Source: a bacterium
GTDB taxonomy: Bacteria; Joyebacterota; Joyebacteria; Joyebacterales; Joyebacteraceae
Length of the DNA stretch: 64,000 nucleotides
Assembly (NCBI GenBank): GCA_025774245.1
Contig: JALGWI010000008.1
Span: 2,525-66,524, forward strand
Direction: 5' to 3'
In this document: positions 3 to 21,963 of the stretch, in pieces
Layout: every line of letters starts with the position of its first letter
Numbering within the stretch: position 1 is the first letter of the stretch
Notes under the pieces: generated by a model
The model's input: the letters and a program-made list of their open reading frames with translations, nothing else
Database searches by the model: none
What the model was told of the DNA's origin: nothing
Translations under genes and position numbers: made by a program

Positions 3-947
3 CACCTTGAGCCCTTCGTCGCCCGCGGGGACGTCCAGCTTCACGGCAGGCTCGACGAGTTCGCCCGCGGGCTCGAGCATCTCCAGAACTTCCTTGAGTA
101 CCAGCCGATCCGCCTCGTGGTGCCGGACCTCGCGACGCCGTTCGCGAAGGAGATTCGCGAGGCGGTCGCGGGGTACGCGTTCGTGCAGCTCGTGGCGGTC
201 CCCCTGAGATACCCGTTCGACCACGCCTCGGTCCTGGCACGTCACCTCGGTCTGCCGCACGACCTCGAGCACCCCGTGTGGGCGATCCCGACCGCGGGGA
301 TCTTCGCGGTCGACCGCGCGCTGACGTTCGGCAGGCCCGTCACCGAGCGTGTCGTCTCGCTGGGCGGACCGGCGGTCGACGAGCCCGTGCACGTCAGGAT
401 CCCCGTGGGCTACCCGATCGACGACGTGCTCGCGAATCACGTCTGCAGGGAGCCCGCCAGGGTCGTGTCGGGCGGGGTCTTTTCGGGCGACGCCATGGGC
501 GAGGACCGGAAGGGTCTCGACACGGAGACCGCCGGGCTCACCGTCCTCGCGGAGAACAGGAGTCGGCACCTCTTCGGGTTCGCGCGTCCCGGGTGGTCGC
601 GGCGCTCGTACGGGAGGACCTTCCTCTCCGGGATCCGCCCGACGTTCGCCGAGAGCATGAACACGGCGCTTCAGGGTGAGCTCCGCCCGTGCATAGCCTG
701 CGGGCAGTGCGTCGACGTCTGTCCCGCCGGGATCATGCCGAACGTGATCCACAAGTACCTCTACGCGGACGAGATCGAGAACACCATCGACGCCCGCGTG
801 GATCTCTGCTTCGAGTGCGGGCTCTGCTCGTACGTCTGCCCGTCGAAGATCGACCTCCGCCAGCAGTTCATCGACGCGAAGAGGGCGATCCAGGAAGAGC
901 TCGAGGCCATCGCGGAAGCCGAGGCCGCGCTGGAGGTGGAAGCTTGA
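3..947 (+). CDS. nqrA: Na+-translocating NADH:quinone oxidoreductase subunit A-like / RnfC-like C-terminal fragment. 5'-partial; the ORF is open to the window start.
   Basis: The frame is open from nt 3 with no upstream stop. The C-terminus has two CxxCxxCxxxCP ferredoxin motifs (CIACGQCVDVCP, CFECGLCSYVCP). It is the first gene of an operon whose downstream genes are NqrB-F-like. Confidence 0.65.
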   Translation, partial: HLEPFVARGDVQLHGRLDEFARGLEHLQNFLEYQPIRLVVPDLATPFAKEIREAVAGYAFVQLVAVPLRYPFDHASVLARHLGLPHDLEHPVWAIPTAGIFAVDRALTFGRPVTERVVSLGGPAVDEPVHVRIPVGYPIDDVLANHVCREPARVVSGGVFSGDAMGEDRKGLDTETAGLTVLAENRSRHLFGFARPGWSRRSYGRTFLSGIRPTFAESMNTALQGELRPCIACGQCVDVCPAGIMPNVIHKYLYADEIENTIDARVDLCFECGLCSYVCPSKIDLRQQFIDAKRAIQEELEAIAEAEAALEVEA

Positions 948-961
948 GGCTCGTCGCGAAC

Positions 962-2014
962 ATGCTCGATCGTGCGCGTCCCCTCTTCGAAGAGGGGGGC
1001 AGGTTCAATCTCCTCAAGCCCGTCTTCGACGCCGGAGACGCGCTCTTTCTCTCGCCGCTCGCGCGCACGTCGGTAGCACCCCACGTCCGCGATCCGCTCG
1101 ACGTCAAGCGCGTGATGACGACGGTGATCATCGCGGTCATCCCGTGCATCCTGGCTTCGGTCTACTTCTTCGGCCTGCGGATGCTCGCGATGTTCGTCGT
1201 CTCGTACGCGGTCGGGCTCTCCATTGAGGTCCTCTCCGCGATCGTCCGCAAGGAGGAGATCAACGAGGGCTTCTTCGTCACCGGCGCGCTCTTCCCGCTC
1301 ATCCTGCCGCCGGCGCTCCCGCTCTGGATGGTCGGGGTGGGCGTCGCCTTCGGGGTCATCGTCGGGAAGGAGATCTTCGGCGGGACCGGACGCAACGTCT
1401 TCAACCCGGCGCTCGTTGGGCGTGTGTTCCTCGCGCTCGCGTATCCGCGGGCGATGTCCGGAGCGTTCGTCGAGCCGGGAAGCGGACCGCTCGGACGCGT
1501 GACGCAGTACGCCGTCGATGCCGTCGCGACGGCCACGCCTCTCGCGGCCGCGAAGGGCGGCGACTTCGCCCCGATCCCGAACCTCCTCATCGGGAACGTG
1601 ACGGGAAGCGCGGGGGAGGTCTCGAGCATCGCGATCCTCCTGGGCGGCATCTTCCTCGTCGCCGTCGGGATAGCGAGCTGGCGCACGGTGTTCTCGATGC
1701 TCGGGTCGTTCGCGATCCTCTCCGCCGTCATGCACGGCGGGAGCCTCGAGATCGTCGGGTGGCACATGCTCGCCGGCGGGCTCCTCTTCGGCGCCTTCTT
1801 CATGGCGACCGATCCCGTGACGAGCCCGATGACGAACGCCGGGAAGTGGGCCTACGGGATCATCATCGGCGTGTCGGCCGCCCTCATCCGGAATCTCACC
1901 GGCTACGTCGAGGGCGTGATGTTCTCCATCCTTCTGGGGAACATCTTCGCGCCGGTCCTGGACGAGGCGTTCATCGCGGCGAGCCTGAGGAGGCTGCGTG
2001 AACAAAAAGCATAG
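962..2014 (+). CDS. nqrB: NADH:quinone oxidoreductase subunit B (NqrB/RnfD family)
   Basis: Polytopic membrane protein. The N-terminus LFEEGGRFNLLKPVFDAGDALFLSP...HVRDPLDVKRVMT resembles the cytoplasmic N-tail of Vibrio NqrB. The ATG at 962 lies 12 nt after a GAGG; the track ORF from 689 begins with an Arg-rich overlap with nqrA. Confidence 0.85.
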   Translation: MLDRARPLFEEGGRFNLLKPVFDAGDALFLSPLARTSVAPHVRDPLDVKRVMTTVIIAVIPCILASVYFFGLRMLAMFVVSYAVGLSIEVLSAIVRKEEINEGFFVTGALFPLILPPALPLWMVGVGVAFGVIVGKEIFGGTGRNVFNPALVGRVFLALAYPRAMSGAFVEPGSGPLGRVTQYAVDAVATATPLAAAKGGDFAPIPNLLIGNVTGSAGEVSSIAILLGGIFLVAVGIASWRTVFSMLGSFAILSAVMHGGSLEIVGWHMLAGGLLFGAFFMATDPVTSPMTNAGKWAYGIIIGVSAALIRNLTGYVEGVMFSILLGNIFAPVLDEAFIAASLRRLREQKA

Positions 2015-2636
2015 CGGATACGCGATCCTCTACGCGGCCGTCCTCGGTCTCGTCTGCGCGCTGGCTCTGACGGGCGTCGACCGCTTCACGGCGGAGAGGA
2101 AGGCGGCGAACGCGCAGGCGGAGGAGGTCCGGAACGTCCTCGGCGTTCTCGGCGTTCCGTTCGCCGCGGGCGCGAGCGCGGCAGAGCTCCTCGAGGTCTA
2201 CGAGTCGAACGTCCGGGACGAGGAGCGGAACGGCCGTGAGTTCTTCGTGTTCGATCATCCGTCTGCGGGCGAGCTCCTCGCGACGCGCTTCGAGGGGCCG
2301 GGTCTCTGGGGACCGGTCGAGGGGTTCCTCTGCCTCCGCGGAGATCGCGAGACGATCTACGCGGTCTCGTTCTACCGGCAGGAGGAGACGCCCGGGCTCG
2401 GCGGGGAGATCTCGTCCGACGCGTTCCAGGACCAGTTCCGCGGCAAGAAGATAGCGACGGCGGCGGGCGCGGGCATCCGCGTGGTCGCCGACGGGGCGGA
2501 CGCGCCGAACGAGGTCGACGCCATCGCCGGCGCGACGATGACGAGCGACAAGGTGCAGGCGATGCTCAACGAGACGATCGAGGAGATCGTCGGCGCGAAC
2601 GGCCGCCCGGCGAGGAGAGGTTCCCATGGCGGATAA
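1998..2636 (+). CDS. nqrC: NADH:quinone oxidoreductase subunit C (NqrC/RnfG family, FMN-binding)
   Basis: N-terminal transmembrane helix. Conserved flavinylation motif AIAGATMTSDKV. GTG start overlaps the nqrB 3' end. Confidence 0.8.
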   Translation: MNKKHSGYAILYAAVLGLVCALALTGVDRFTAERKAANAQAEEVRNVLGVLGVPFAAGASAAELLEVYESNVRDEERNGREFFVFDHPSAGELLATRFEGPGLWGPVEGFLCLRGDRETIYAVSFYRQEETPGLGGEISSDAFQDQFRGKKIATAAGAGIRVVADGADAPNEVDAIAGATMTSDKVQAMLNETIEEIVGANGRPARRGSHGG

Positions 2637-3306
2637 GAGCCCGGTCGCGTGCGTCACCTGCGTCTCCCGCGGCGGCGTCTGCGACGGGAAGGGCATCCAG
2701 ACGCTCAAGGACGGCGTCTGGGCCTCGAACCCGATCTCGATCCAGATCCTCGGGATCTGCTCCGCGCTTGCGGTCACGAACAGGCTCGAGAACTCGCTCG
2801 TGATGGGCGTGGCCCTCATCTTCGTCTGCGTCGGCTCGAACCTCTTCGTCTCGCTCCTCCGAAACGTCACGCCCCGGCGGATCCGCATGATCGCCGAGGT
2901 CGCGATCATCGCCACGTTCGTGATCGTCTTCGATCAGATCCTGAAGGCGTACTACTGGGAGATGTCGAAGCAGCTCGGCCCGTACGTCGGCCTCATCATC
3001 ACGAACTGCATCGTCATGGGGCGAGCCGAGGCCTTCGCGCTCCAGAACCGTCCGGTCGTCTCCATGGTCGACGGCCTGGCGAACGGAATCGGCTACGCCG
3101 TCGTCCTCGCGATCATCGGGTTCTTCCGCGAGCTCGCGGGGACAGGCGGGGTCGCAGGATTCCAGATCCTCTCGCTCGACTGGTACGTGCCCAATCAGCT
3201 GGCGGTCCTGGCGCCCGGCGCCTTCGTGGCGCTCGGTTTCCTGATCGCGCTCTTCAACTGGCTGAGCGGGGCGAACAAGGAGGAGAATGAGGGGAGCACG
3301 CCATGA
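2626..3306 (+). CDS. nqrD: NADH:quinone oxidoreductase subunit D (NqrD/RnfE family)
   Basis: PISIQILGICSALAVT matches the NqrD/RnfE N-terminal signature. Polytopic membrane protein. Has an unusual Cys-rich 25-aa N-terminal extension. Confidence 0.85.
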   Translation: MADKSPVACVTCVSRGGVCDGKGIQTLKDGVWASNPISIQILGICSALAVTNRLENSLVMGVALIFVCVGSNLFVSLLRNVTPRRIRMIAEVAIIATFVIVFDQILKAYYWEMSKQLGPYVGLIITNCIVMGRAEAFALQNRPVVSMVDGLANGIGYAVVLAIIGFFRELAGTGGVAGFQILSLDWYVPNQLAVLAPGAFVALGFLIALFNWLSGANKEENEGSTP

Positions 3307-3893
3307 CTGAGCTGTCGCCGTTCGTCATCCTGATTGCCGCGATCTTCACGAACAACATCCTGCTCGCGAACTTCCTCGGGATGTGCTCGTTTCTCGCGGT
3401 CTCGAAGAAGATCGAGACCGCGGCCGGGCTCGGCGCGGCCGTCATCTTCGTGACGACGGCCACGACGGCCATCAACTACGGCATCTACCATCACGTGCTC
3501 ACGCCCCTCGGTCTCACGTATCTCACGTTCATCGTCTTCATCGCGGTCATCGCCGCGTTCGTGCAGTTCGTGGAGATGTTCGTCGAGCGGTTCAGCCTCG
3601 GGCTCTACCACGCGCTCGGCATCTTCCTTCCGCTCATCACGGTCAACTGCGCCATCCTCGGCGCCTCGCTCTTCATGATCATCAGGAACTACACGTTCTG
3701 GCAGTCGGTCGCCTTCGGGTTCGGGGGCGGTGTCGGCTGGACGCTCGCGATCGTGCTCATCGCGGGCCTCCGGCAGAGGATGCGCTACTCCGACGTGCCG
3801 GTGCCCTTCCGCGGCGTCGCGATCGCGATGGTGATCACCGGCGTCATGGCGATGGCGTTCATGGGGTTCGCGGGAATGGTGAGGATCCAGTAG
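3303..3893 (+). CDS. nqrE: NADH:quinone oxidoreductase subunit E (NqrE/RnfA family)
   Basis: 196-aa polytopic membrane protein. ILLANFLGMCSFLAVSKK matches the NqrE/RnfA family. Confidence 0.9.
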   Translation: MTELSPFVILIAAIFTNNILLANFLGMCSFLAVSKKIETAAGLGAAVIFVTTATTAINYGIYHHVLTPLGLTYLTFIVFIAVIAAFVQFVEMFVERFSLGLYHALGIFLPLITVNCAILGASLFMIIRNYTFWQSVAFGFGGGVGWTLAIVLIAGLRQRMRYSDVPVPFRGVAIAMVITGVMAMAFMGFAGMVRIQ

Positions 3894-4988
3894 ATGGCTC
3901 TGCTCCTGCCGATACTCGTCTTCGGAGGTCTCCTCGTCGGGCTCACGATCGCCCTGTCGCTGGCGGAGCGCGTCCTCATCAACTACGGTGTCTGCAAGCT
4001 CGACGTCAACAACGGCGATCGCGAGTTCGAGGTCGACGGGGGGCAGACTCTCCTCTCGGCGCTGAACGAGTCGAAGGTCTTCATCCCCTCGGCGTGCGGC
4101 GGCCGCGGGTCGTGCGGACACTGCACCGTCACTGTCCTCTCGGGCGGCGGGCCGGTGCTCCCGACCGAGACGCCGTTCCTGACGAGGGTGGAGGTCAGGC
4201 AGGGCGTGCGCCTCGCCTGTCAGGTGAAGATCCGCGAGGACATCCGAATCAAGGTCCCGGAGGAGATCCTCAACGTCAAGATGTTCGCCGCGACCGTTTC
4301 GGCCAACCACCGGCTGACGCACGACCTCGTCGAGACCCACATGAGGCTCGACGAGCCGACCGAGATAGAGGCGAGGCCCGGGCAGTACGTGCAGCTGCAG
4401 GCTCCGGCGCCCGAGGGACCGGTCTACCGCGCGTACTCGATCAGCTCTCCCGCGTCCGTGAAGGACGAGGTCGAGCTCGTTGTGCGACTCGTTCCCGGCG
4501 GCATCGCGTCGACCTACATCCACGGCCTCGAGGAAGGCGACCAGGTCATCTTCACAGGACCGTACGGCGACTTCCGGATGAACGAGGAACCGGACGTCGA
4601 CATCGTCTGCATCGGCGGCGGATCGGGCATGGCGCCCTTGAAGAACCTCGTGCACACCGTGACCGCGCGCTGGCCGGAACGGAAGTGCTGGCTCTTCTTC
4701 GGCTGCCGCACGACGCAGGACATCTTCTACCTGGACGAGTTCCGGGAGCTCGAGAAGAAGAACCCGAACTTCCACGTCGTCTACGCGCTCTCCGATCCCC
4801 TCGAGGGCGAGGAGAAGTGGGAAGGGGAGACCGGGTTTATCCACCTGTCGGTCGACAAGCACCTCGACGTCAGCGACAGGAAGCGACAGGCGTTTCTGTG
4901 CGGCCCGCCGCCGATGGTCGAGGCCGTGATGAAGGTCCTCGAGGGCAAAGGGTTCAAGCCCGAGGACATCTACTACGACGAGTTCTAG
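3894..4988 (+). CDS. nqrF: NADH:quinone oxidoreductase subunit F (2Fe-2S ferredoxin plus FAD/NADH-binding)
   Basis: N-terminal transmembrane helix. 2Fe-2S motif CGGRGSCGHC...C. FAD motif RAYSISS. NAD motif GGGSGMAP. Confidence 0.9.
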   Translation: MALLLPILVFGGLLVGLTIALSLAERVLINYGVCKLDVNNGDREFEVDGGQTLLSALNESKVFIPSACGGRGSCGHCTVTVLSGGGPVLPTETPFLTRVEVRQGVRLACQVKIREDIRIKVPEEILNVKMFAATVSANHRLTHDLVETHMRLDEPTEIEARPGQYVQLQAPAPEGPVYRAYSISSPASVKDEVELVVRLVPGGIASTYIHGLEEGDQVIFTGPYGDFRMNEEPDVDIVCIGGGSGMAPLKNLVHTVTARWPERKCWLFFGCRTTQDIFYLDEFRELEKKNPNFHVVYALSDPLEGEEKWEGETGFIHLSVDKHLDVSDRKRQAFLCGPPPMVEAVMKVLEGKGFKPEDIYYDEF

Positions 4989-5000
4989 GGAGGTCGTCTC

Positions 5001-5453
5001 ATGGCCGTCACGACCGTTGCCTGCGTGCTGAGACGTGCCGCCGACTTCGAGTGCATCCTGATGGACTACTACCTCGGCCTCGCGGAGCAGACGACGCGGG
5101 AGGGGGTCAGGCTCCTCACCGACTACATGGCGCGGCACCGCCGCCGGCTCACCGAGGCGCTCGAGAGGTTCCCGGCCGGCGAGTACAAGAGGATCTCCGT
5201 CCTTCCGATCCGCTACGAGCCGGTCGCTGCGGAGTGCGACCACTTCTCGAGCAGGCCGCTGCCGCGGGACGCGACCGCGGCCGAGGTGCTCGATATCGCC
5301 ATCGAACTGGACGAGTGCCTGATATCGCTCTACCGTCAGGTGATCGAGCAGGACGTCGACCCCGAGGTGAAGGATCTCTTCGAGAGCCTCGTTCACCGTG
5401 AGGAGCGCGACGAGATTCAGCTCAAGAAGATCAAGGCGATGAACTACTTCTGA
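5001..5453 (+). CDS. Hypothetical protein, possibly a four-helix-bundle or ferritin-like fold
   Basis: 150-aa ORF with ordinary amino-acid composition, between nqrF and the polyprenyl synthase in the same orientation. No recognisable motif. Confidence 0.45.
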   Translation: MAVTTVACVLRRAADFECILMDYYLGLAEQTTREGVRLLTDYMARHRRRLTEALERFPAGEYKRISVLPIRYEPVAAECDHFSSRPLPRDATAAEVLDIAIELDECLISLYRQVIEQDVDPEVKDLFESLVHREERDEIQLKKIKAMNYF

Positions 5454-5472: not shown

Positions 5473-6480
5473 ATGCAGCTTGCTGACATATACAGACCCG
5501 TCCGGGACGATCTCGACGCCGTCGAGGGTGTGCTTCGCAAGAGCCTGACGGGCACGGGCGATGGATCGATGGCGGAGGTCGGTCGGTACGTCCTCGAGGC
5601 GGGAGGCAAGCGTATGCGACCTGCGCTCGTGCTCCTCTCGGCCGGGGCGTCCGGCGGCGACGCTGCATCGGGTGCCAGGCAGCATCTCGTAGGCCTGGCC
5701 GCCGCCGCGGAGCTCATCCACATGGCGTCGCTCCTTCACGACGACGTCGTAGACGATGCGCGCCTGCGGCACCACAACCCCACGATCAACACGAGGTGGG
5801 GCGACGACGTCTCGATCGCGCTCGGCGACTACCTCTACTCAATCGCGTTCCACCTCATCTCCATGAGCGACGATCCCGGCATCGTCCAGGTCATGAGTTC
5901 CGCCACCGTCGCCATGTGCGAGGGTCAGCTCCTCCAGATCTGCGAGCGGACGAACCTGAACCTCTCCAGGGAGCGCTACGTCGAGATCGTCGAGAAAAAG
6001 ACCGCGGCCCTCTTCGCCGCCTCGGCCGAGGTCGGCGCCTCGCTCTCGAGCCGCAAGGAGTCCCTGAGGCGAGCGCTCCGCGACTACGGATTGAGCCTCG
6101 GCATCTCGTTTCAGATCGTCGACGACTACCTCGACCTCATCGGGGACGAGAAGCGGATGGGAAAGGAGCCCGGTCAGGACATCGCGGCCGGCGAGGCGAC
6201 CCTCCCGATGCTGAACTTGTGGGAGATCCTCTCGGACGAGGAGCGGAAGGCGACGGCCGATCTTCTGTCGTCGCACACCGGCGCCGACGCACTCTCGATC
6301 ATCAGGGAGAAGCTCGTGAGCACCGGGGCGGCCTCGATGACAGAGAAGGCCGCGATATCCTACGCGAACTCGGCGCGCGAGAGCCTGAGCGTGCTCACCA
6401 ACTCCACCTACAAGGAGAGCCTCCTCGGGCTCGCGGACTTCGTGCTCGAGCGCGGGTTCGGGAGCGCGGGAAGGGCGTAG
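5473..6480 (+). CDS. Polyprenyl diphosphate synthase (trans-isoprenyl diphosphate synthase, IspB/HepT/DmkB-like)
   Basis: Two DDxxD motifs (LLHDDVVDD and IVDDYLD), the GKRMRP motif, 335 aa. Confidence 0.85.
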   Translation: MQLADIYRPVRDDLDAVEGVLRKSLTGTGDGSMAEVGRYVLEAGGKRMRPALVLLSAGASGGDAASGARQHLVGLAAAAELIHMASLLHDDVVDDARLRHHNPTINTRWGDDVSIALGDYLYSIAFHLISMSDDPGIVQVMSSATVAMCEGQLLQICERTNLNLSRERYVEIVEKKTAALFAASAEVGASLSSRKESLRRALRDYGLSLGISFQIVDDYLDLIGDEKRMGKEPGQDIAAGEATLPMLNLWEILSDEERKATADLLSSHTGADALSIIREKLVSTGAASMTEKAAISYANSARESLSVLTNSTYKESLLGLADFVLERGFGSAGRA

Positions 6481-6581: not shown

Positions 6582-6989
6582 ATGAAGCCGAATCCTGCAG
6601 TCGATCCCACTTTCCTCAAGCCGACGGCCACCGACGTGATCCTCATCGCGGTGGTCCTCGTTCTTGCGACCGCCTCGATCGTCTGGGTGGGCCGCGCCGA
6701 GAGCCGGACACCGGCCGGATCAGCCGTGGCGAAGATCTACCACGGCAACGTGCTCATCGAGGAGGTCGCGCTCGATGTCGATCGCGACCTCGAGCTCACC
6801 GACGTCGGCATGAGGGTCGAGGTGAGGGAGGGGAGGATCCGGGTCGTCGAGTCGGACTGCCCCCAGCAGGTCTGCGTCCATGCCGGCTGGATCCGGCGGG
6901 GCCGACAGGTGATCGCCTGCGTTCCGAACAAGGTCCTCATCACGATCGAGTCGTCGGAGCCGCCGTTCCTCGACGCCATCGTCCACTGA
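6582..6989 (+). CDS. NusG domain II-like small membrane protein (EetA-like candidate)
   Basis: N-terminal transmembrane helix, then a domain with CPQQVCVHAGWI...IACVPNKVLITIE (four-Cys NusG_II-type motif). The ATG at 6582 lies inside the longer track ORF from 5796. Confidence 0.6.
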   Translation: MKPNPAVDPTFLKPTATDVILIAVVLVLATASIVWVGRAESRTPAGSAVAKIYHGNVLIEEVALDVDRDLELTDVGMRVEVREGRIRVVESDCPQQVCVHAGWIRRGRQVIACVPNKVLITIESSEPPFLDAIVH

Positions 6990-7020
6990 CGCGGGCGTCG
7001 CCGCCCGCACGGGATGCCTC

Positions 7021-8307
7021 ATGGCAGAGCCGGACACCACCGATCACCACGGCACGCACAGGATGGCCCTCCTGGTGGCGGTCGCGTGCGTGCTCCAGAT
7101 CGCGGAGTCGCTCCTCCCGCATCCGATTCCGGGGCTGCGCCTGGGGCTCGCCAACACCCTGACCCTGGTCGCACTCGTGATGTTCGGGTTCCGCTCCGCG
7201 CTCGAGCTCACCGTGCTCCGAACGATCCTCTCCTCGTTCATCATCGGGACGTTCATGTCGCCGGGCTTCATCCTGAGCTTCTCGGCGGGGATCGTGAGCA
7301 CGTTCGTCATGGGTCTCGTCTACTGGCTCGCGACGAGGCACCGTCGCCTCGGGCTCAGCATCATCGGGGTGAGCGTCGTCGGCGCGCTCGCGCACAACAC
7401 GGTGCAGCTCCTTCTCGCCTACGCGCTTCTCGTTCGGCATCCCGGCATCTTCATCTTCTTCCCGTGGCTCATGATCGGGGCCGTCGTCATGGGGTGGGTG
7501 ACCGGACTCGTTGCGGGCGGAGTCTGCCGGAGGATCGCCGCGCCGCACGAGCACACGGAGCGGCGGATGGCGGTCGGGTCGAAGCCGGCACCGATGGTGC
7601 CGCGCGACTACGTGCCCGGCGACTCCCTCGTTCACCGTGTTCCCTCTGTTGTCAAGATCGCGAGCGTCGTCGTCCTGGCAATCGTCATTCTCGTGTTCAC
7701 CGACCCCTGGCTCTATCTTGCGATCTTCGTTCTCCTTCTCGTCGCGGGCGCGGTCTCGGGCGCCTCGCCGGTCTTCTTCGCGAAACGAGTGGGGAGATAC
7801 GCCTTCCTCCTCGCGGTCGCATTCCTGTTGCCCGCATTCTTCAACTCGGGTACGCACGTCCTCGCGAGCGCGGGCCCGCTCCGGATCACAACCGAGGGGA
7901 TCCGCGCCGGATGTTTCTTCGCCGCGCGGATTCTCCTGCTCATGATGGCAAGCTCGCTCTGGGTTCGAACGACGTCGCCGCAGGAGATGACGCGGGGACT
8001 CACGAAACTCCTGTCACCCTTGCGCGCATTTGGCATTCCCGTCGAAAGGTCTGCCGCCATCGTCTCCGAGGCGTGGCTCGCGATTCCAGCGTTCTGGGGG
8101 ACGGTGACGGACACGTTCCATATCGAGAACCTGAAGAAGTTGCGGGGTATCCGCGACTTCGTTCCGCTGCTCACGGAACTCATCGCGGCTCTGTACGTCG
8201 AGGCAGAAGATGCGGGAATCGACGGCTCCGCTCAGGGCGGAAGCGAGACTGCGACCGGGAGAAACGGAGACCGGCTTGCGGCCGATGGAGGAGGAGGGAC
8301 CTCCTGA
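7021..8307 (+). CDS. Fusion protein: Gx transporter (ECF S-component-like, 'heptaprenyl diphosphate synthase component I' family) N-terminal domain plus an ECF transporter T-component (EcfT/CbiQ)-like C-terminal domain
   Basis: Residues 1-175 are a small polytopic protein with the Gx-family pattern. Residues ~190-428 begin with YVPGDSLVHRVPSVVKI, an EcfT N-terminal motif, followed by EcfT-like transmembrane helices. A single uninterrupted ORF. Confidence 0.7.
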   Translation: MAEPDTTDHHGTHRMALLVAVACVLQIAESLLPHPIPGLRLGLANTLTLVALVMFGFRSALELTVLRTILSSFIIGTFMSPGFILSFSAGIVSTFVMGLVYWLATRHRRLGLSIIGVSVVGALAHNTVQLLLAYALLVRHPGIFIFFPWLMIGAVVMGWVTGLVAGGVCRRIAAPHEHTERRMAVGSKPAPMVPRDYVPGDSLVHRVPSVVKIASVVVLAIVILVFTDPWLYLAIFVLLLVAGAVSGASPVFFAKRVGRYAFLLAVAFLLPAFFNSGTHVLASAGPLRITTEGIRAGCFFAARILLLMMASSLWVRTTSPQEMTRGLTKLLSPLRAFGIPVERSAAIVSEAWLAIPAFWGTVTDTFHIENLKKLRGIRDFVPLLTELIAALYVEAEDAGIDGSAQGGSETATGRNGDRLAADGGGGTS

Positions 8308-8367
8308 GGGCCTGAAAGGGCCCGCCCGGCCGCTTCGCCACGACAACGCCCGCTTGGGGATACGCCC

Positions 8368-9393
8368 ATGGAGAGAAGGACCATCGGAGCTGCGCTCGTC
8401 TGCGCCGCGCTCGCCGGCGCCGCCGGCGTCGGGCTCCCCTCGTGCTCGTCGGACCGCAGCGGCTCCTCCTCGGATGACGTCTCCGACAAGACGCGTTTCA
8501 TGATGGGGACGTACGTCACCATCCACGTCCGGGGGCCGGCGGAGAGCGCGATCCCGGCGATCGAAGCGGCTCTCGACCGGATGGAGGAGATCGACAGGAA
8601 GTTCAACGTCACGAACCCCGAGAGCCCCCTCCACGCGTTCAATCACGATGGCACTCCGGTCACCGACGAGGAGATCCTGGCGGTCGTCGATGAGGCGATG
8701 AAGATGACTGGCCTCACGGACGGAGCGTTCGACGCGACGATCTCTCCTCTGATCGAGCTCTGGGGTTTCTACGATGAGACCCCCGCCCTTCCTGAGCATC
8801 AGAAGATCGAGTCGTGCATGGAGAGGATCGGCCACGAGCACGTGGTTCTCCTGGACGGCGTGCTCAGGAAGACGAAGGAGGGCGTTGGGATCGACCTGGG
8901 CGGCATAGCCAAGGGTTACGCCGTCGAGGAGGGCGCCGAGGTTCTGCGCGGCCTGGGTCTGACGGAGGCCCTCATCGACGCCGGGGGCGATATCTACGCG
9001 CTCGGTTCCCGGGGCGGAGAGCCCTGGAAGGTCGGCGTCAGAAGTCCCCGCGGGGAGGAGCTTCTCGGGTACATCGAGGTCGAGGACATGGCCGTCATGG
9101 GCTCGGGCGACTATGAGAGGTTCTTCATCCACGAGGGCAGGCGATACCATCACATCTTCGATCCCAGGACGGGATATCCGGCCGAAGGTCTGTCGGGAAT
9201 CACCGTCCTATCCTCCGAGCCGATGACGGCGGACGCCTGGGCGACCGCGCTCTTCGTCATGGGGCCTGAGGAAGGTCTCCGGGCGGCCGAGGAGATGCCG
9301 GACCTCGAGGTCATCATGGTCACGACATCGGGCGAAGTGCTCCACACGAGCGGGATGGGGAACGAGCTCAGGGCGCCGCCCGAAAACCAGTAG
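8368..9393 (+). CDS. apbE: FAD:protein FMN transferase (ApbE family) lipoprotein
   Basis: Lipobox LPSC after the signal peptide. ApbE motifs TRFMMGTYVTI, GIAKGYAV, DAGGDIY and GSGDYERFF. Confidence 0.85.
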   Translation: MERRTIGAALVCAALAGAAGVGLPSCSSDRSGSSSDDVSDKTRFMMGTYVTIHVRGPAESAIPAIEAALDRMEEIDRKFNVTNPESPLHAFNHDGTPVTDEEILAVVDEAMKMTGLTDGAFDATISPLIELWGFYDETPALPEHQKIESCMERIGHEHVVLLDGVLRKTKEGVGIDLGGIAKGYAVEEGAEVLRGLGLTEALIDAGGDIYALGSRGGEPWKVGVRSPRGEELLGYIEVEDMAVMGSGDYERFFIHEGRRYHHIFDPRTGYPAEGLSGITVLSSEPMTADAWATALFVMGPEEGLRAAEEMPDLEVIMVTTSGEVLHTSGMGNELRAPPENQ

Positions 9394-9416: not shown

Positions 9417-10136
9417 TTGAAGCTGAGACTGAGTTCCATCGGATTCCTGTCGCTCGCGATACTCATCGCGATCGCCGGGCTCTCGTGGGCCGAAGAGGCC
9501 GCGACCGAGAAGACGAAGGGCGAGACGGCCGTCGAGGAGTACTTCGGTGACGGGGCCGAGATCATCCACAAGGCGCTCGAGCTGGTCGATCCGAAGCTCG
9601 CCGCCCTGGAGGAGCAGCTCGGGTTCGCGCTCGTCGCTGAGCCCGACGAGGACGAGGAGGTTGAGCGGAAGGCGACCTTCGACTACTACTTCGTGAAGAG
9701 CGGGGAGAAGGTCGGCGCGGCAACCGTCGTCTCCGCGAGGGGGAAGTGGGCGCCCGTGACGTATCTCGTGGTGCTCGGCTTCGACGCCGCGGTGACCCGC
9801 GTGGAGGTCATCGAGCACAGCGAGAAGCGCGGCAAGGACATCGAGGGCAGGACCTTCCTCGAGCAGTTCGACGGAAAGACGTCCGAAGACGACATCACGC
9901 TCACGACGGACATCACCGCGGTGAGCGGCGCGACGGTCTCGTCGCGGAGTGCCACCGAGGCGGTCCGGGCGGCGATCGTCGTCTACGAGGAGTTGATCCT
10001 CAAGGGCGGAGCTGAGAAGGACAAGAAGACCGCGGACGAGCACGGTGCGGCCTGCGATCACGGCGCCAAGGACGACCACGACGATCATGGCGCCAGGGAC
10101 GACCACGACGACCACTCCGAGTCGAAGGACGAGTAG
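9417..10136 (+). CDS. Secreted FMN-binding domain protein (NqrC/RnfG-type FMN_bind) with a His/Asp-rich C-terminal tail
   Basis: Signal peptide. Flavinylation-type motif DITAVSGATVSS. C-terminal HGAACDHGAKDDHDDHGARDDHDDHSE. TTG start 5 nt after GGGAGGAGG. Confidence 0.7.
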   Translation: MKLRLSSIGFLSLAILIAIAGLSWAEEAATEKTKGETAVEEYFGDGAEIIHKALELVDPKLAALEEQLGFALVAEPDEDEEVERKATFDYYFVKSGEKVGAATVVSARGKWAPVTYLVVLGFDAAVTRVEVIEHSEKRGKDIEGRTFLEQFDGKTSEDDITLTTDITAVSGATVSSRSATEAVRAAIVVYEELILKGGAEKDKKTADEHGAACDHGAKDDHDDHGARDDHDDHSESKDE

Positions 10137-10173
10137 CGATCGTCGGCGCACCGCTTCATGTCAGCGAAACGAG

Positions 10174-10202
10174 AAGGGCCGCGGCACGATGCCGCGGCCC
10201 TT
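10174..10202. terminator. Bidirectional hairpin terminator between convergent genes
   Basis: Perfect 12-bp GC-rich stem AAGGGCCGCGGC / GCCGCGGCCCTT with an ACGAT loop, between the + strand gene ending at 10136 and the - strand gene ending at 10228. Confidence 0.5.
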
Positions 10203-10227
10203 TGACCATCACGCGCCGGTCGCGCCG

Positions 10228-12741
10228 TTACTCCGGCAGCACGTCAGTCGTCGCTTCGAGCTGGAACAGGTTATCGATCCCCGTATTCCCGAGGCTGAGG
10301 AACCGGTGGAGCCCCAGGCCCGCCGTCACCTCCTCGAGGCGCCTGTCGAAGAACGACCGCTTCTCGGTGCAGTAGGCGATGTTCGCCCTCTCCCTCTTCA
10401 CGCCGATCTTCTCGCACGCGTAGTCGATCGTCGCCGAGAGGCCGCCGGACTCGTCGACGAGTCCGAGCTCGAGTGCCCGGGCACCCACGTAGACCCTGCC
10501 CTCCGCGAGCTCGCGCAGCCGGTCGGCGCTCATCCCTCGGCTGTCCGATGCCTTCTCGATGAAGTCGTCGTAGAACCACTCCATGGCCTCCTGCGCCATC
10601 TCGAGTTCCTTCTCCGTGAGATGCCGCGTGAGGGACCACTGGTCGGAGTGCTCCCCGCGCTTGATCGTCTCGTGCGTCGCGTCGATCTTGTCGTAGAGCT
10701 CGGCCAGGACCGGCTTCATCCCCATGACGCCGATGCTCCCCGTGATCGTGAGCGGCTGAACGAAGATCTTCTCAGCGGCGACTGCGATGTAGTAGCCGCC
10801 CGATGCGGCGACGTCGGCCATCGACACGATCAGGGGCTTCTCCTTCGCGAGCTTGACCGTCTCGTTCCAGATGATGTCGGAGGCGAGGCCGCTCCCTCCT
10901 CCGCTGTCGACTCGGAGGATCACCGCCTTGACGCGCGAGTCCTTCCGCACCTTCTTGAGCGCCGCCACGAGTGTCTCCGCGCCGATCGAGCGCGCGCCGG
11001 AGACGGGGTCGGTGCCGCCCTTGCCTTCGTGGATCGTCCCGTAGGCTCCCACGACCGCGATCGTCGGCCCGTAGGTCCAGTCGTACACCTTGTCCTGCCA
11101 CTTCCGCACGCTGACGACGCCGATGTTGTCGGGATCGTCCGGTACCTTCTCCCCGGTGAACTCCCTCGCGGCGACCTTCGCTTCCTCGTAGAAGCCGAGG
11201 CGATCGACCAGGCCGGCCTCGAGCGCCGCCGGCGGCGTGAAGAGCCGTCCGTTGCAGAGCTCCTCGGCCTTGCTCCGAATGATCCCGCGTCCCTCGACGA
11301 TCGACTCGACGATGGCCTCGTAGCTGGAGTCGACCAGTTCCTGCACCTCCACGCGCTGCTCGGCGGTCAGGGAATCGGGGCCGAGCGAATGGAAGGTGCT
11401 CTTGTACTTCCCGGCCGTCATGTAGTCCCACTCGATGCCGAGCTTCTCGGTGGTGCCCGTGAACCGCATGATCGTCCTGTGGGCCCCGAGGCCGTCGATT
11501 CCGCTCGCCGGGTTCATGACGACGAGGTCGGCGGCGGTGGCCAGGTAGTACTCCTGCGAGCTCGCGCCGTGCTCGAGGTACACGACGATCTTCTTCCCCT
11601 TGACGTCGCGCGCCCGCACGATCTCGTCGCGGATGTCCTGCGAGAGCGCCGACGGGCCACCGAAGAACCCGCGGCCGAGCCCCTTGATGCGGAACAGGAT
11701 GCAGTCGATCGAGCTCTGATCCGCCGCTCGCCGGATGTCCCTGACGATCCGCTGCGCGCTCGCCTCGGGCCCGCCGAAGAGGCTCCAGCCCGGCGACGTG
11801 TCGGAGAGCGGGCCGGTGATCTTGATTTCGGCCACCTGGTGCGACGGCTTGATGACGCTCCTCATACGCTGTCCCGTGAAGAGCACGTCGTAGGTCATGA
11901 CGCGATCGATCGACGGCGTGAAGCTCCTGGCCGAGGCGCCGGCCCCGACGTGCGTTCCTCCGAGCCAGAGCCCGAGGCTCGTCTCTTCCTCGCGCGCTCC
12001 CTCATACCGGTACGACTTCATCGAGCCCCGGAGGATCAGTCCGTTCATGATCTCGGTCTCGAGCCCGCCGACGTACGACGCCTCGTCCCAGTCCCAGCCC
12101 CGCGGAACGCTGGCGTCCGCCATGAGCGTGAGGCGGTTCCCGAACGGACGGACGGCGAGGCCGAACACGTAGGACATGGTCGTCGACTGGCACGAGCAAT
12201 CGGCGGGCAAGATCGGGTCGCTCAGGTAGGTAGGCTCCGAGAGGTTCCTGAGCGTGGCGCCGAGCGACAGGACGCTCGACGGACGGATCATGAGTCCCAC
12301 GTCCCACGTGCCCGACTTCTTGCGGGTGCCGAACTGCGGCCTGAACCAGCGGTAGTCGAAGCCGAGACCCCACGAACGCGACTGCCCGAAGGCGAAGCCG
12401 AGGGTGTAGGTGTCCATGGCGTTTCCGCCCATGCGGAGCCCGGAGATGTCAGGATCGTCGTACGGTTCCCAGAGGTACTGCCGGTCGTAACCGAACCCGA
12501 AGCTGCCGAGCTTGACCGCGGCCGAGCCTCCCGCCGACTTCGAGCCGGCGGTCGAGTACGACACGTAGAGGCTCTGTTCGGGGTAGAGCGCGAGCCCGCC
12601 CGGGTTCAGGAAGACCGCCGTCGCGTCGTCGTTGACGGCGACCGAACTCGCTCCCCGCAACCAGGTGTTCGGGAGGATGTCCGCCTGGGCTCCTCCGGCG
12701 AAGACCGCCGCCACGATGAGCACTGCTGCAATCGTCCGCAT
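10228..12741 (-). CDS. sppA: Signal peptide peptidase SppA (two S49 domains, 67K type) fused to a ~300-aa N-terminal beta-barrel-like (PorV/FadL-like) domain
   Basis: Signal peptide. The N-terminal domain has alternating aromatic/Gly beta-strand patterns (LGFAFGQS, WGLGFDYRW). Two S49 peptidase domains lie in the C-terminal 550 aa. Confidence 0.8.
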   Translation of the reverse strand: MRTIAAVLIVAAVFAGGAQADILPNTWLRGASSVAVNDDATAVFLNPGGLALYPEQSLYVSYSTAGSKSAGGSAAVKLGSFGFGYDRQYLWEPYDDPDISGLRMGGNAMDTYTLGFAFGQSRSWGLGFDYRWFRPQFGTRKKSGTWDVGLMIRPSSVLSLGATLRNLSEPTYLSDPILPADCSCQSTTMSYVFGLAVRPFGNRLTLMADASVPRGWDWDEASYVGGLETEIMNGLILRGSMKSYRYEGAREEETSLGLWLGGTHVGAGASARSFTPSIDRVMTYDVLFTGQRMRSVIKPSHQVAEIKITGPLSDTSPGWSLFGGPEASAQRIVRDIRRAADQSSIDCILFRIKGLGRGFFGGPSALSQDIRDEIVRARDVKGKKIVVYLEHGASSQEYYLATAADLVVMNPASGIDGLGAHRTIMRFTGTTEKLGIEWDYMTAGKYKSTFHSLGPDSLTAEQRVEVQELVDSSYEAIVESIVEGRGIIRSKAEELCNGRLFTPPAALEAGLVDRLGFYEEAKVAAREFTGEKVPDDPDNIGVVSVRKWQDKVYDWTYGPTIAVVGAYGTIHEGKGGTDPVSGARSIGAETLVAALKKVRKDSRVKAVILRVDSGGGSGLASDIIWNETVKLAKEKPLIVSMADVAASGGYYIAVAAEKIFVQPLTITGSIGVMGMKPVLAELYDKIDATHETIKRGEHSDQWSLTRHLTEKELEMAQEAMEWFYDDFIEKASDSRGMSADRLRELAEGRVYVGARALELGLVDESGGLSATIDYACEKIGVKRERANIAYCTEKRSFFDRRLEEVTAGLGLHRFLSLGNTGIDNLFQLEATTDVLPE

Positions 12742-12939
12742 GTGCCTCCTCCTTCTTCCCGCCGCGCTGTGCCGTGATTAGTATCGTCCGCGCACCGATC
12801 GTGTTGCCGCCGCGCTGGCAGCTCGCGTGGGTGGGATTGTACCACGATGTCGCGTGATGGTCACGCGACTCCCGGAGGTCGGGAGCCGCGTCGAGGTTGG
12901 GGGTCGTGCTGAGGCTGGGAGCCGCGCCAGGGGGCGGGG

Positions 12940-17976: not shown

Positions 17977-18327
17977 ATGAGAACACGACGGATCCTCGAC
18001 CTACTTGTGGTCCTCGCGCTGAGCTTTGCCTTGCTCACGGCAACGGCCAGCTCGGCGAGGCAGGCTCACGTCAGCGTCACGGATCAGGGGACGGCTCCCC
18101 CGATCGCCCTGAAGGACGACGGCGACGGCGGAGACGATGATCGCTGGGGCGCCTGCGATCCCTACGATCCCGAAGATCCCGACCCCGAAGGAGAGGGTGA
18201 GGGCGACGGTGAGGAGCCAGAGGGCGACGGAGAGGTTCAGGGCGGGAACCCGAAGGCGTTCGAGACGATTCGGATGCAGCTCTCGAACATCTTCTGGCGC
18301 CTGAGGCTCATGCTCGCAGCACTCTAG
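17977..18327 (+). CDS. Small secreted acidic low-complexity protein
   Basis: Signal peptide MRTRRILDLLVVLALSFALLTATASSA, then a D/E/G/P-rich stretch (DPYDPEDPDPEGEGEGDGEEPEGDGE). Confidence 0.35.
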   Translation: MRTRRILDLLVVLALSFALLTATASSARQAHVSVTDQGTAPPIALKDDGDGGDDDRWGACDPYDPEDPDPEGEGEGDGEEPEGDGEVQGGNPKAFETIRMQLSNIFWRLRLMLAAL

Positions 18328-18378
18328 CTTCAGCCAACACGGCTCAAGCGTTCGTACCCTGCTGCGCGAGGCCAGGAT

Positions 18379-21300
18379 ATGGCTGACCGAAGGCCGGACG
18401 ATAAGCCCGAACGCGAGATGCTCGAGGCGTTCAAGAAGGCGATGGAGTCGCGGAGTGCGCGCGATGCGGCGCTCACGGCCATCCGCCTCGGAGACGTCTA
18501 CCTCGAGTCGGACAGCTACACCGACGCGCTCGGCTACTACACCCGCGCCGCGGGAACCGAGCTCGGCTCTGAGCTCGCCGACGGTGAGGTGGCCGGTCTC
18601 AATGTTCAGATCGCCAAGTGTCATCTCGGTCTCGGAAACTACGGCAAGGCGCGGGCCTGCTGCGCGAAGCTCGACGATCTCGAGCTCAGCGAGGAAGACA
18701 GCGCGGCCTGGGCGGAGGCGAACGTCGTTCTCGCGCGAATCGAGATCGAGAGCGGCCGGTACGACGAAGCCCTTCGCGCGGCGCAGAAGGCGTACGACAT
18801 ACTCAGGGTAAGCCCCGACAGCCCACTCCTCGCCGAGGCCGGCAAGGCGCTCGGCATCGCCAACGCCGAACTCGGCAACACGCAGGCGGCGCGCGACTAC
18901 TTCACCGACTATCTTGTTTCGCAGAAACGGCTCGGCAACGAGGCCGGGCTCGCCGCGGCGTACAACAACCTCGGCATTCTGGCGAAGCGGACCGGTGACC
19001 TGAACGGCGCGCTCGAGTATCTCGACAGCGCGCTCACGATCGATCGGAAGCTCGGTCGGTCGCTCGCGATCGCCGACCGCCTGACCAACACCGGCATCAC
19101 CCTCTACAGGCTCTCCAGGTGGGCCGAGGCCGAGGAGAAGCTGAACGAGGCGAAGGAGATCTACTCGAGGATCGGCGCGACGAGAGGCATCGCCGCTGCG
19201 CAGACCGCGCTCGGCAACGTCTATCGCGTGCGCCGCGAGTGGGGCCCCGCCCAGGATCTCCTCGAGAGCGCGCTCAGGGTGAGCCGCGACCACGGCTACC
19301 TCCGGACGGAGGCCCTCGCACTCGAGTTCCTCGGCGACCTCCAGATGGATCAGGGCCTGAAGCAGCAGGCGCGCGGAACGCTCGATCAGGCGCTCGGGTG
19401 CGCGTACCGGCTCGCGTCGAACAGCGACGTCGTCGGGGAGGTCCTGAGGCGTCGCGCCGAAGTGCTCTTCGCACTCGGACGGCTCGAGGACGCCGAGCGC
19501 GACTGCTCCGACGGCGTGAAGCTCTGCCGCGAGATCGGCGACAGCCTCGAGGAAGGCGCGTTCCTTCGCGTCCTGGCGAGCATCTGCTACGCCAAGGGCG
19601 AGCGCACCGCCGCAGAGGTCCTCATCGGCCGCACGGAGGACATCCTCCGGAGGGCGGGGGACTCCTTCGAGCTGGCCAAGACCGCGTTCGCCGACGCCGT
19701 CGGCATGCGCGATTCCTCGGCGCCGGGCGAGCTTCCCATCGACCGTATCGAGGCGCGCTTCTCCGCCGCCGAATCGATCTTCACGAGGATCGGCGCCGGC
19801 GACTGGGTCGCCCGGTGCGAGCTCGAGAGAGGGAAGGCGCTCCACCGCGCCGGCCAGCCCGACCGCGCGAGGACGTGGCTCGATCGCGCCAGGCTCAAGA
19901 TGGAAGTGAGCCACGACCGCGAGGGCCTGGCCGAGGTCGACGCCATTCTGAGGGAACTGGACGCGGAGCTCGAAGAGGCCGGCGTCTCCCGTCGGGGGAG
20001 GTACTCGACCATTGCGGAAGGCTACCGCTTTCTCGAGACGACCGAGCCCAAGGCGGAGGACCTGCACGAGTTCGCCATAGAGATCGCGAACGCGATCCCC
20101 GCGGACCGGCTCGTGCTCTTCTCGGTCACGGAGGAAAACGGCCCGGTCGTCGCGACCTCGGTCGATCACACGGGACGGGGAGTGGCCGAGGTCACCAGGT
20201 TCGTCCGGACCACCATCGGGAACCGCGGACACACGAGGCCGCTCATCGTCAGCGACGGGCGCTCGGCCGACGCATACTTCGCGCCGGGCGTGGGCGCCGT
20301 GGCGCTCATCCCGGGCGAGGTCGGGAACGATCGCGGGCGGACGTACCTTCTCTACACCGACCGCGCCAAGAGCGACCGGTCGACGCCGTTCACGCAGAGC
20401 GACATCGAGTTCATCGCCGCGGCCGCCCGCATGCTCGGGCTGGCGTACACGCGGGCCGGCGAATCGCACGCCTGGGAGGCGGACGGCGAGCTGGCGCAGC
20501 AGCTCAGTGAGTCGTCCGACGGGCGCGGGCTGATCACTCGGGATCCCGGCATGCTGCGGCTCCTGGCCAGCGTCGAGCGTCTGAAGGACAGCCACGTCCC
20601 GATCGTCATCCGCGGTGAGTCGGGAGTGGGCAAGGAGCTCATCGCTCGGGCGATCCACGAGGGTGGGCGCAGCAAGACGGGCCGTTTCGTCGCCTTGAAC
20701 GCCGGCGCCATTCCACCCAACCTGCAGGAGAGCGAGCTCTTCGGGCACGTCAAGGGCGCGTTCACCGACGCCGACCGCGACCGCGAGGGACTCGTTCAGG
20801 CCGCTGCCGCCGGCACGCTCTTCCTCGACGAGATCGGCGAGATGAGCTCGCAGCTCCAGGTGAAGCTCCTCAGGTTCCTGCAGAACGGGGAGTACCGACG
20901 TGTCGGCGAGAGCGTGACGAGGACGAGCGACGCCAGGGTCGTCTCGGCGAGCAACAAGGACCTCGCGGAGGAGGTCAAGGCCGGACGCTTCCGGCGCGAC
21001 CTCTTCTACAGGCTCTGCGCCGTCGTCATCCTGGTGCCGCCCCTGAGGGACAGGCCCGACGACGTCCCGCTCCTCATGGAGCACTTCCGGGAGTTCTACT
21101 CGAAGCGCGAGACCAAGCACATCCCCGGGTTCAGCCGCGAGGTGCGGGAGATCTTCCAGCGGTACGACTGGCGCGGGAATAACGTCCGCGAGCTCGAGAA
21201 CGAGGTCCGTCGGGGCGTGGCCCTGGCTGCGGACGGGGAGGTGATCGGGATCGACAAGATCAGCCCCGAGCTCCGCAGCCGCTACGAGGTCAGCCTCGGC

Positions 21301-21471
21301 GACGACGAGCCGCACCGCCGCTCTCTCAAAGACGAGGTTGGGGCGCTCGAGAAGAGCCGGATCCTGGAGGCGCTCTCGAGGACCGGGTGGAACAAGCAGG
21401 CGGCGGCCGACGTCCTCGGCCTGTCGCGCACAGGCCTCCACGCGAAGATGAAGAAGTACGGGCTCGGATAG
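18379..21471 (+). CDS. Sigma-54-dependent transcriptional activator with a large N-terminal TPR-repeat domain
   Basis: Multiple TPR-like repeats in aa 1-500. AAA+ sigma-54 interaction domain (GESGVGKELIARAIH, ESELFGHVKGAFTDA). C-terminal Fis-type HTH (AAADVLGLSRTGLHAKMKKYGL). Confidence 0.85.
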   Translation: MADRRPDDKPEREMLEAFKKAMESRSARDAALTAIRLGDVYLESDSYTDALGYYTRAAGTELGSELADGEVAGLNVQIAKCHLGLGNYGKARACCAKLDDLELSEEDSAAWAEANVVLARIEIESGRYDEALRAAQKAYDILRVSPDSPLLAEAGKALGIANAELGNTQAARDYFTDYLVSQKRLGNEAGLAAAYNNLGILAKRTGDLNGALEYLDSALTIDRKLGRSLAIADRLTNTGITLYRLSRWAEAEEKLNEAKEIYSRIGATRGIAAAQTALGNVYRVRREWGPAQDLLESALRVSRDHGYLRTEALALEFLGDLQMDQGLKQQARGTLDQALGCAYRLASNSDVVGEVLRRRAEVLFALGRLEDAERDCSDGVKLCREIGDSLEEGAFLRVLASICYAKGERTAAEVLIGRTEDILRRAGDSFELAKTAFADAVGMRDSSAPGELPIDRIEARFSAAESIFTRIGAGDWVARCELERGKALHRAGQPDRARTWLDRARLKMEVSHDREGLAEVDAILRELDAELEEAGVSRRGRYSTIAEGYRFLETTEPKAEDLHEFAIEIANAIPADRLVLFSVTEENGPVVATSVDHTGRGVAEVTRFVRTTIGNRGHTRPLIVSDGRSADAYFAPGVGAVALIPGEVGNDRGRTYLLYTDRAKSDRSTPFTQSDIEFIAAAARMLGLAYTRAGESHAWEADGELAQQLSESSDGRGLITRDPGMLRLLASVERLKDSHVPIVIRGESGVGKELIARAIHEGGRSKTGRFVALNAGAIPPNLQESELFGHVKGAFTDADRDREGLVQAAAAGTLFLDEIGEMSSQLQVKLLRFLQNGEYRRVGESVTRTSDARVVSASNKDLAEEVKAGRFRRDLFYRLCAVVILVPPLRDRPDDVPLLMEHFREFYSKRETKHIPGFSREVREIFQRYDWRGNNVRELENEVRRGVALAADGEVIGIDKISPELRSRYEVSLGDDEPHRRSLKDEVGALEKSRILEALSRTGWNKQAAADVLGLSRTGLHAKMKKYGLG

Positions 21472-21963
21472 AGGGCCCCGGGCCGGCTCTATCGGCCCCA
21501 CAGGAGTGTGCTCCACGATCTCCCCCGGGCGCGCCTGCGCCGGGGGTTTCGATTGTCCGGGAGCGGCTTCCTCTGACGGCGGACCCCGCGCCCCACCGCG
21601 TGTCCCCATGTGCCCCCCGCGTGTCCCCGCCCCCCCCCGCCGGATCCCTCCCCGCGGTCCACGTTCTCCGCAGCCTCCTCCAGGGAGGATCCGCGGCCGG
21701 AAGGCCCGCTTTGTCAGCACTTCCAGCGCGTCGAAACCTCGACGACGCGTCAAAATCTCGACGCTCTCGTAACTTCCCATTCTTCAAGCGGTTAAGGCGA
21801 TACCCCCCCGAGACACCGTACGGACCGTCGAAAACGTGCCATGAGGCTGAATCATCAACCATTTGAGCTCGGCGAGCGCGGCCGTAAACTACAGATGGGC
21901 CACATGTTACATGGAGGCTGTCAGAACATGGCTGAGCGGTCATTCAGCCGTTTCTGGCATGGT

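Follow-up and report, generated by a model that had tools for sequence, protein, structure and literature searches.

An uninterrupted reading frame joining an EetB/Gx-type S domain to a short EcfT-type T domain within a flavinylation gene neighbourhood

Introduction

In Listeria monocytogenes, FAD is exported by EetB (PF07456), the ECF-T paralogue FmnA and EcfA/A′ for use by the ApbE-type protein FmnB, which acts on PplA; EetB binds FAD, and both EetB and FmnA are needed for the flavinylation of PplA (PMC9973259). The S and T units of this exporter are separate proteins, while in the stretch of bacterial DNA analysed here (64 kb, referred to below as the window) an S-like and a T-like unit lie in one polypeptide. 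The question raised by this locus is whether the joined protein acts as both membrane subunits of a single flavin exporter and, if it does, how such an exporter would be energised.

Fusions of this kind have been described before. Rivera-Lugo et al. (2023) listed single-chain proteins combining EetB with ECF-T and EetB with ECF-A (PMC9973259, section 7, Fig. 2C), the former under the accessions WP_021725833.1, MBE6480012.1, MBQ3267887.1 and WP_012799238.1, and used them for the Rosetta-stone argument that EetB is an ECF-S component. The preliminary description of the window presented its fusion as strong evidence that the two families work as one transporter. That reasoning is correct, but the S-T fusion itself is already published, the family is common and the inference is not new.

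Results and Discussion

Integrity of the reading frame

The fusion gene belongs to a long operon on the plus strand, which is ended by the convergent sppA gene, and it translates without a stop into 428 amino acids (Table 1). The single uninterrupted frame of the preliminary description could be an artefact of sequencing or assembly, in which a lost stop codon or a frameshift has run two genes together. Against this, a second JGI contig carries the identical ORF with the same neighbours, the cluster formed at 90% identity contains in-frame variants of 428 and 444 amino acids from other assemblies, and the S-T architecture is kept in hundreds of homologues across phyla. The chance that the fusion is an artefact is close to nil.

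Several other reading frames were considered and set aside. A 172-residue member of the 90% cluster (P0121), examined as a possible split gene, is a C-terminal fragment at the end of a contig, and the ORF that overlaps the fusion in another frame (7014-8315) has no Pfam match. The ORF at 10045-12777 (+) was rejected as a gene, the true gene being sppA (Peptidase_S49) on the minus strand. Elsewhere in the window an ORF of 1259 amino acids (18001-21780, minus strand) has no Pfam match at E ≤ 0.001 and may not be a gene, since GC-rich sequence makes long spurious ORFs common.

Table 1. Positions in the window of the fusion gene, its parts and the neighbouring genes.
Feature	Position	Strand	Remarks
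Nqr-like six-gene operon (nqrA-like, nqrB, nqrC, nqrD, nqrE, nqrF)	3..4988	+	nqrA-like gene cut by the window start
150-aa ORF	5001..5453	+	no Pfam match; between nqrF and the polyprenyl synthase gene
Polyprenyl diphosphate synthase	5473..6480	+	PF00348, E 4e-67; two genes upstream of the fusion
EetA-like membrane-anchored NusG_II domain protein, 136 aa	6579..6989	+	PF07009, E 2e-24
Fusion ORF	7021..8307	+	428 codons and stop; made up of the four parts in the next rows
S-component-like EetB/Gx domain, residues 1-173	7021..7539	+	PF07456, fold
Linker, residues 174-195	7540..7605	+	basic, poorly conserved; pLDDT 57-76, no secondary structure, variable columns
Short EcfT/CbiQ-like T domain, residues 196-397	7606..8211	+	Pfam, fold, alignment
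C-terminal tail, residues 398-428	8212..8304	+	hydrophilic, non-conserved; pLDDT <50
ApbE flavin transferase	8368..9393	+	PF02424, E 3.9e-84; N-terminal lipoprotein-like signal
FMN_bind protein, secreted or lipid-anchored	9417..10136	+	PF04205; flavinylation motif DITAVSGATVSS

Domain composition and predicted structure

Two Pfam families are found in the same frame of the one polypeptide, with the S-like part N-terminal to the T-like part. PF07456 (Hpre_diP_synt_I, the EetB/Gx family) covers residues 18-165 with an E-value of 1.2e-37 and 129.7 bits, while PF02361 (CbiQ, the ECF T-component family) covers residues 202-357 with an E-value of 1.6e-14 and 54.6 bits; both scores exceed the Pfam gathering cut-offs, which are 30 and 25 bits respectively. 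The N-terminal half is thus the Gx-type core and the C-terminal half the EcfT/CbiQ-type unit that the preliminary description had recognised. The second match spans only profile positions 3-151 of 216, and against the TIGR02454 CbiQ equivalog the fusion scores 39.2 bits, where 111.8 are needed.

The structure prediction that had been called for supports both assignments. The AF2 model, built with 40 homologues, has a mean pLDDT of 85.5 and a pTM of 0.83; its N-terminal half has the six-helix bundle of an ECF S-component and its C-terminal half the transmembrane domain and coupling helices (CH1-3) of EcfT. When the halves were compared with known structures using Foldseek, the first matched RibU (3p5n_A, probability 0.99) and the second matched EcfT (7nnu_D, E-value 1.2e-6, target TM 0.62). 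In the S domain the loop HPIPGLRLGLAN is invariant, and helix 1 contains an AxxxA/S motif (A16-LLV-A20), with alanine at position 16 in 40/40 sequences and alanine or serine at position 20 in 39/40. An AxxxA motif in helix 1 of S-components is used for docking on the T unit (PMC4820897). The two domains are separated by a linker, as proposed; the length of about 15 residues given for it was too short, the model showing about 22-29 residues of low pLDDT, from 174 to approximately 202. The linker is presumably cytoplasmic.

Distribution of the fusion

A search for other Gx-CbiQ fusions, which the preliminary description had recommended, finds many of them. Among the matches listed, all 120 homologues (of at least 371) carry both PF07456 and PF02361. 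An exhaustive search with the fusion profile matched 204 clusters at 50% identity with E ≤ 1e-30, and the best 150 of these 204 are mostly full-length matches in a single stretch, of 350-480 amino acids. The fusion was located in 56 species-representative genomes, whose hosts belong to the Desulfobacterales, Omnitrophota, Poribacteria, Planctomycetota/Brocadiaceae, Elusimicrobiota and KSB1. Literature searches under the name "Gx transporter" returned nothing relevant.

One fusion is of particular use for comparison. It comes from the Eggerthellaceae (P0269/P0275, MGI6045235.1), is not among the published accessions, has the same order of EetB followed by T, and adjoins ApbE/NusG_II and an Rnf/Nqr-type operon. 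At this locus (L059) ApbE and NusG_II (EetA), which are separate proteins in the window, are themselves fused into a protein of 456 amino acids (6634-8004), encoded directly upstream of the EetB-T fusion and the Rnf operon. This second fusion provides a further Rosetta-stone link, from EetA to ApbE.

Gene neighbourhood and the likely substrate

The genes around the fusion are strongly conserved. A NusG_II gene lies immediately upstream in all 53 loci with enough upstream sequence, and downstream apbE is present in 34 of the 38 informative loci and an FMN_bind gene in 30 of them. Nqr/Rnf-type genes (8 loci) and a polyprenyl synthase gene (10 of the 56 loci) are linked to the fusion in a subset only. 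In the window apbE starts 61 nt downstream of the fusion, and the FMN_bind protein encoded after it is likely to be an ApbE substrate, in a PplA-like role.

This arrangement resembles the extracellular-electron-transfer locus of Listeria, where apbE (fmnB), eetA (NusG_II), an FMN_bind substrate (PplA-like) and a polyprenyl synthase (DmkB-like) are likewise linked, and the fusion resembles the EetB and FmnA exporter in pairing an S-like unit of the PF07456 family with a T unit of the CbiQ/EcfT family. It differs in its diderm host and in its partner for electron transfer, an Nqr-like complex where Listeria has Ndh2. From the parallel with the Listeria locus, the best-supported reading is that the protein is the single-chain S-T module of an FAD exporter, and we consider it probable that the ORF combines, in one chain, the two membrane-embedded subunits of an ECF-type exporter of flavin (FAD).

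The same neighbourhood bears on two other functions that might be assigned to the protein. The first is import, with the protein serving as an ECF-type module that takes up a flavin or some other micronutrient. Every S/T pair whose structure has been characterised is an importer, and the fold by itself is silent on direction. The S domain belongs to PF07456/EetB and not to RibU or another importer family; the EetB of Listeria is needed for export and does not replace RibU as an importer (PMC9973259). Tight and conserved synteny with a periplasmic ApbE and its substrate also fits a supply of FAD to the periplasm, and import is in our view very improbable.

The second is a part in prenyl metabolism, either as a subunit of heptaprenyl or polyprenyl diphosphate synthase or in the handling of prenyl lipids or quinones. 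A polyprenyl synthase gene stands close upstream in the window, and many of the homologues are named "heptaprenyl diphosphate synthase" by JGI. NCBI now uses "Gx transporter family protein" as the family name, the linkage to polyprenyl synthase is limited to the small subset of loci given above while eetA and apbE are nearly universal, EetB binds FAD (PMC9973259), and an integral membrane protein in which an ECF S-component fold is joined to a T component would be an unexpected synthase subunit. Such a role is most improbable, even more so than import, and the polyprenyl synthase neighbourhood may itself lie behind the misnomer "heptaprenyl diphosphate synthase component I" for PF07456.

Several features of the surrounding genes deserve description in their own right. 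NqrB and NqrC are classical substrates of ApbE. In the NqrC of the window the motif reads IAGATMT, and in the NqrB-like subunit (approximately 962-2014, +) the stretch where the SGAT flavinylation motif was expected reads DAVATATPL. The NqrA-like subunit (3-947, +) contains an RnfC-type 2x[4Fe-4S] ferredoxin domain, CIACGQCVDVCP ... CFECGLCSYVCP, and a full NqrF (Fer2, FAD and NAD domains) is encoded at 3894-4988 (+); this hybrid Nqr/Rnf composition is conserved in loci L001, L009, L016 and L020. The 150-aa ORF that follows nqrF has counterparts of 76-79% identity in L001 and L007, and was called as a gene in L057.

In most relatives the fusion and apbE are separated by a gap of approximately 1.4-2.0 kb, while the window and four other loci have no gap. 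The gap gene was inspected in two loci, L011 (11343-12641) and L001 (11250-12437), where it encodes a beta-barrel protein of approximately 400 amino acids with a signal peptide, a C-terminal ...TF and a weak Porin_O_P match; the idea that it is an ATPase was rejected in both. In L011 (4106-9522 and 14523-16868), from a member of the Desulfobacterales, the eetA-fusion-porin-apbE-FMN_bind cassette is set among genes for cytochrome b561 and multihaem c-type cytochromes, and an MtrC/OmcA-like outer-membrane cytochrome (PF22113, E-value 7e-51) follows the cassette. The cluster looks like a porin-cytochrome type system for extracellular electron transfer with a flavinylated component.

The short T domain

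The T domain consists of four transmembrane helices, a beta hairpin and the coupling helices CH1 (320-337), CH2 (341-368) and a shortened CH3 (377-397). The EcfT N-terminal motif mentioned in the preliminary description was located at residues 197-213 as YVPGDSLVHRVPSVVKI; in the alignment its counterpart at the N-terminus of EcfT from Lactobacillus brevis is RYLPLDSVVHRLDPRAKL, and the fusion-family profile matches the L. brevis protein with an E-value of 1.7e-29. The domain shares with the canonical EcfT/CbiQ proteins (PDB 4HUQ, 4HZU, 5D3M, 5X3X) the N-terminal motif, TMH1-4, the CH1-CH3 topology and the fold. EcfT has five transmembrane helices (PMC4820897), and in the fusion TMH5 and the arginine at the end of CH3 are missing. 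For about 65 of the 259 residues of EcfT the fusion offers no structural equivalent, and a covalent link ties its T domain to the S unit. EcfT-like helices are thus present as proposed, although the EcfT is not complete, lacking the second Arg signature and the last helix; the same two elements probably set it apart from the T part of the Listeria exporter.

This truncation is a property of a whole clade and not of one protein, and the fused members of the clade come from Desulfobacterales, Omnitrophota, Planctomycetota, Elusimicrobiota and further phyla. Among 208 full-length members of the short-T clade the last conserved position is Y392, about 12 residues of CH3 are missing, and the second Arg signature, at the C-terminal end of CH3, is absent, a match to A[RK][GSA] occurring in just 7 of the 208 tails. 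EcfT has AMEARGY at this point and the Eggerthellaceae fusion has AICARAY, to which nothing in the short-T clade corresponds. The tails are 0-61 amino acids long and none of the 208 contains a hydrophobic 17-mer after Y392, so TMH5 is missing from the clade; in the AF2 model no helix follows residue 397 other than 403-406. Matches to the CbiQ profile end at positions 151-194 of 216 in the short-T clade, compared with a match over 4-209 of 216 in the Eggerthellaceae protein, which keeps both coupling signatures (SRG and ARA). The CH2-CH3 loop of the clade is also shorter, by a deletion of 8-9 residues after CH2, than that of the Eggerthellaceae protein or of L. brevis EcfT.

The first Arg signature appears to be degenerate. 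Arginine occurs within residues 372-376 in 110 of the 208 members, while lysine or arginine is present there in 206; position 375 is lysine in 81, glycine in 38 and arginine in 36, which amounts to a basic patch without a conserved arginine. The patch is conserved at the turn between CH2 and CH3 and is extended by R/K378. The window fusion has L374-R375-G376 at this place, 2-3 residues out of register with the ARG of EcfT, and this may be a remnant of signature 1.

An unfused short T protein of the same truncated type was also found (P0268, 231 aa). It is encoded at 408-1103 of locus L058, directly upstream of apbE, on a contig of 3.8 kb from which an EetB gene is absent.

No feature of T units is more conserved than the two Arg signatures, at which the ATPases dock (PMC3246461, PMC4820897). 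The short-T variant is distinct, and the one fresh point in this analysis is the loss, from the T half of this lineage, of part of the usual ATPase-docking apparatus.

ATPase dependence

A T domain without the second Arg signature means that the canonical four-subunit ECF cycle is not assured. One alternative is a tethered facilitator, independent of ATPases or using a single one, in which the T domain is a mere docking scaffold for the attached S domain and FAD would move down its gradient without an EcfA/A′ motor, pulled by its consumption by ApbE. The shortened CH3, the loss of TMH5 and of the second Ala-Arg-Gly signature throughout the clade, the apparent decay of the first signature and the early end of the CbiQ match relative to the Eggerthellaceae fusion with both signatures all favour this alternative, given that these signatures are where A units dock.

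The search for ATPase genes points in the same direction. No ECF ATPase gene was found in the 64-kb window by a scan for Walker-A and LSGGQ motifs, and the only ABC ATPase of the window (26844-27887) was rejected as a candidate, being of the DrrA/ABC-2 type with its own permease. A motif scan, rather than a profile search, of the 56 loci detected no ABC ATPase gene near the fusion, with two Walker-A-only matches approximately 9 kb away. The neighbourhood of the Eggerthellaceae fusion, with its intact signatures, is likewise without an ABC ATPase gene, and distally encoded ATPases are normal, so synteny cannot decide whether an ATPase is needed.

Group II ECF systems normally share ATPases encoded at a distance, which speaks against a facilitator, and the basic patch that persists at 372-376 and 378, including L374-R375-G376 in the window, could dock one ATPase. 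Solitary S components such as BioY transport without an ECF module and set a precedent for S-type carriers that are free of ATPases. Unlike these components, which have no T unit, the fusion keeps a conserved T-like scaffold. For the Listeria exporter, dependence on EcfA/EcfA′ has been demonstrated (PMC9973259). On balance we regard the facilitator as unlikely, though with a much better claim than import or a prenyl function.

A broader form of the same idea takes in the whole short-T clade, fused as well as unfused next to apbE, as a self-contained "toppling" carrier, ATPase-independent or with a single ATPase, that would deliver FAD straight to ApbE, perhaps by way of NusG_II. We put this forward as a tentative and rather unlikely proposal; if it were true, the short-T system would descend from ECF transporters without being an ABC transporter any more.

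Proposed mechanism

For the preferred reading, a single-chain module of an FAD exporter, the substrate, the direction of export and the toppling movement rest on analogy with the EetB and FmnA proteins of Listeria (PMC9973259) and with the ECF mechanism (PMC4820897). The N-terminal half would be the EetB-type domain that carries the substrate, and the C-terminal half the FmnA/EcfT-type scaffold. The S domain would bind cytosolic FAD and topple against its own T domain, whose coupling helices form a hydrophobic platform, before releasing the FAD at the periplasmic side. There the neighbouring ApbE would draw on this FAD to flavinylate, by covalent attachment of FMN, both the FMN_bind protein encoded downstream and the NqrC/NqrB subunits of the Nqr-like complex encoded upstream. 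A third component is probably the invariant EetA-like NusG_II membrane protein, which may hand FAD on to ApbE.

Conclusions

The fusion adds little by itself, as it repeats the published argument for a single flavin exporter composed of EetB-type and EcfT-type proteins. Its distribution extends that Rosetta-stone argument far beyond the Firmicutes, into many uncultivated diderm lineages. The cassette of eetA, fusion, porin-like gene (where present), apbE and FMN_bind flags flavinylated periplasmic electron carriers in bacteria related to sulfate reducers; it adjoins Nqr-like genes in the window, and genes for multihaem and MtrC/OmcA-like cytochromes in one relative. The short-T lineage, in which the T domain is tethered and the second docking signature has been lost, and its sister type in the Eggerthellaceae, which keeps both signatures, together form a natural experiment. 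A comparison between them could reveal what powers ECF-type export, and whether the S unit has to leave the T unit for transport to take place.
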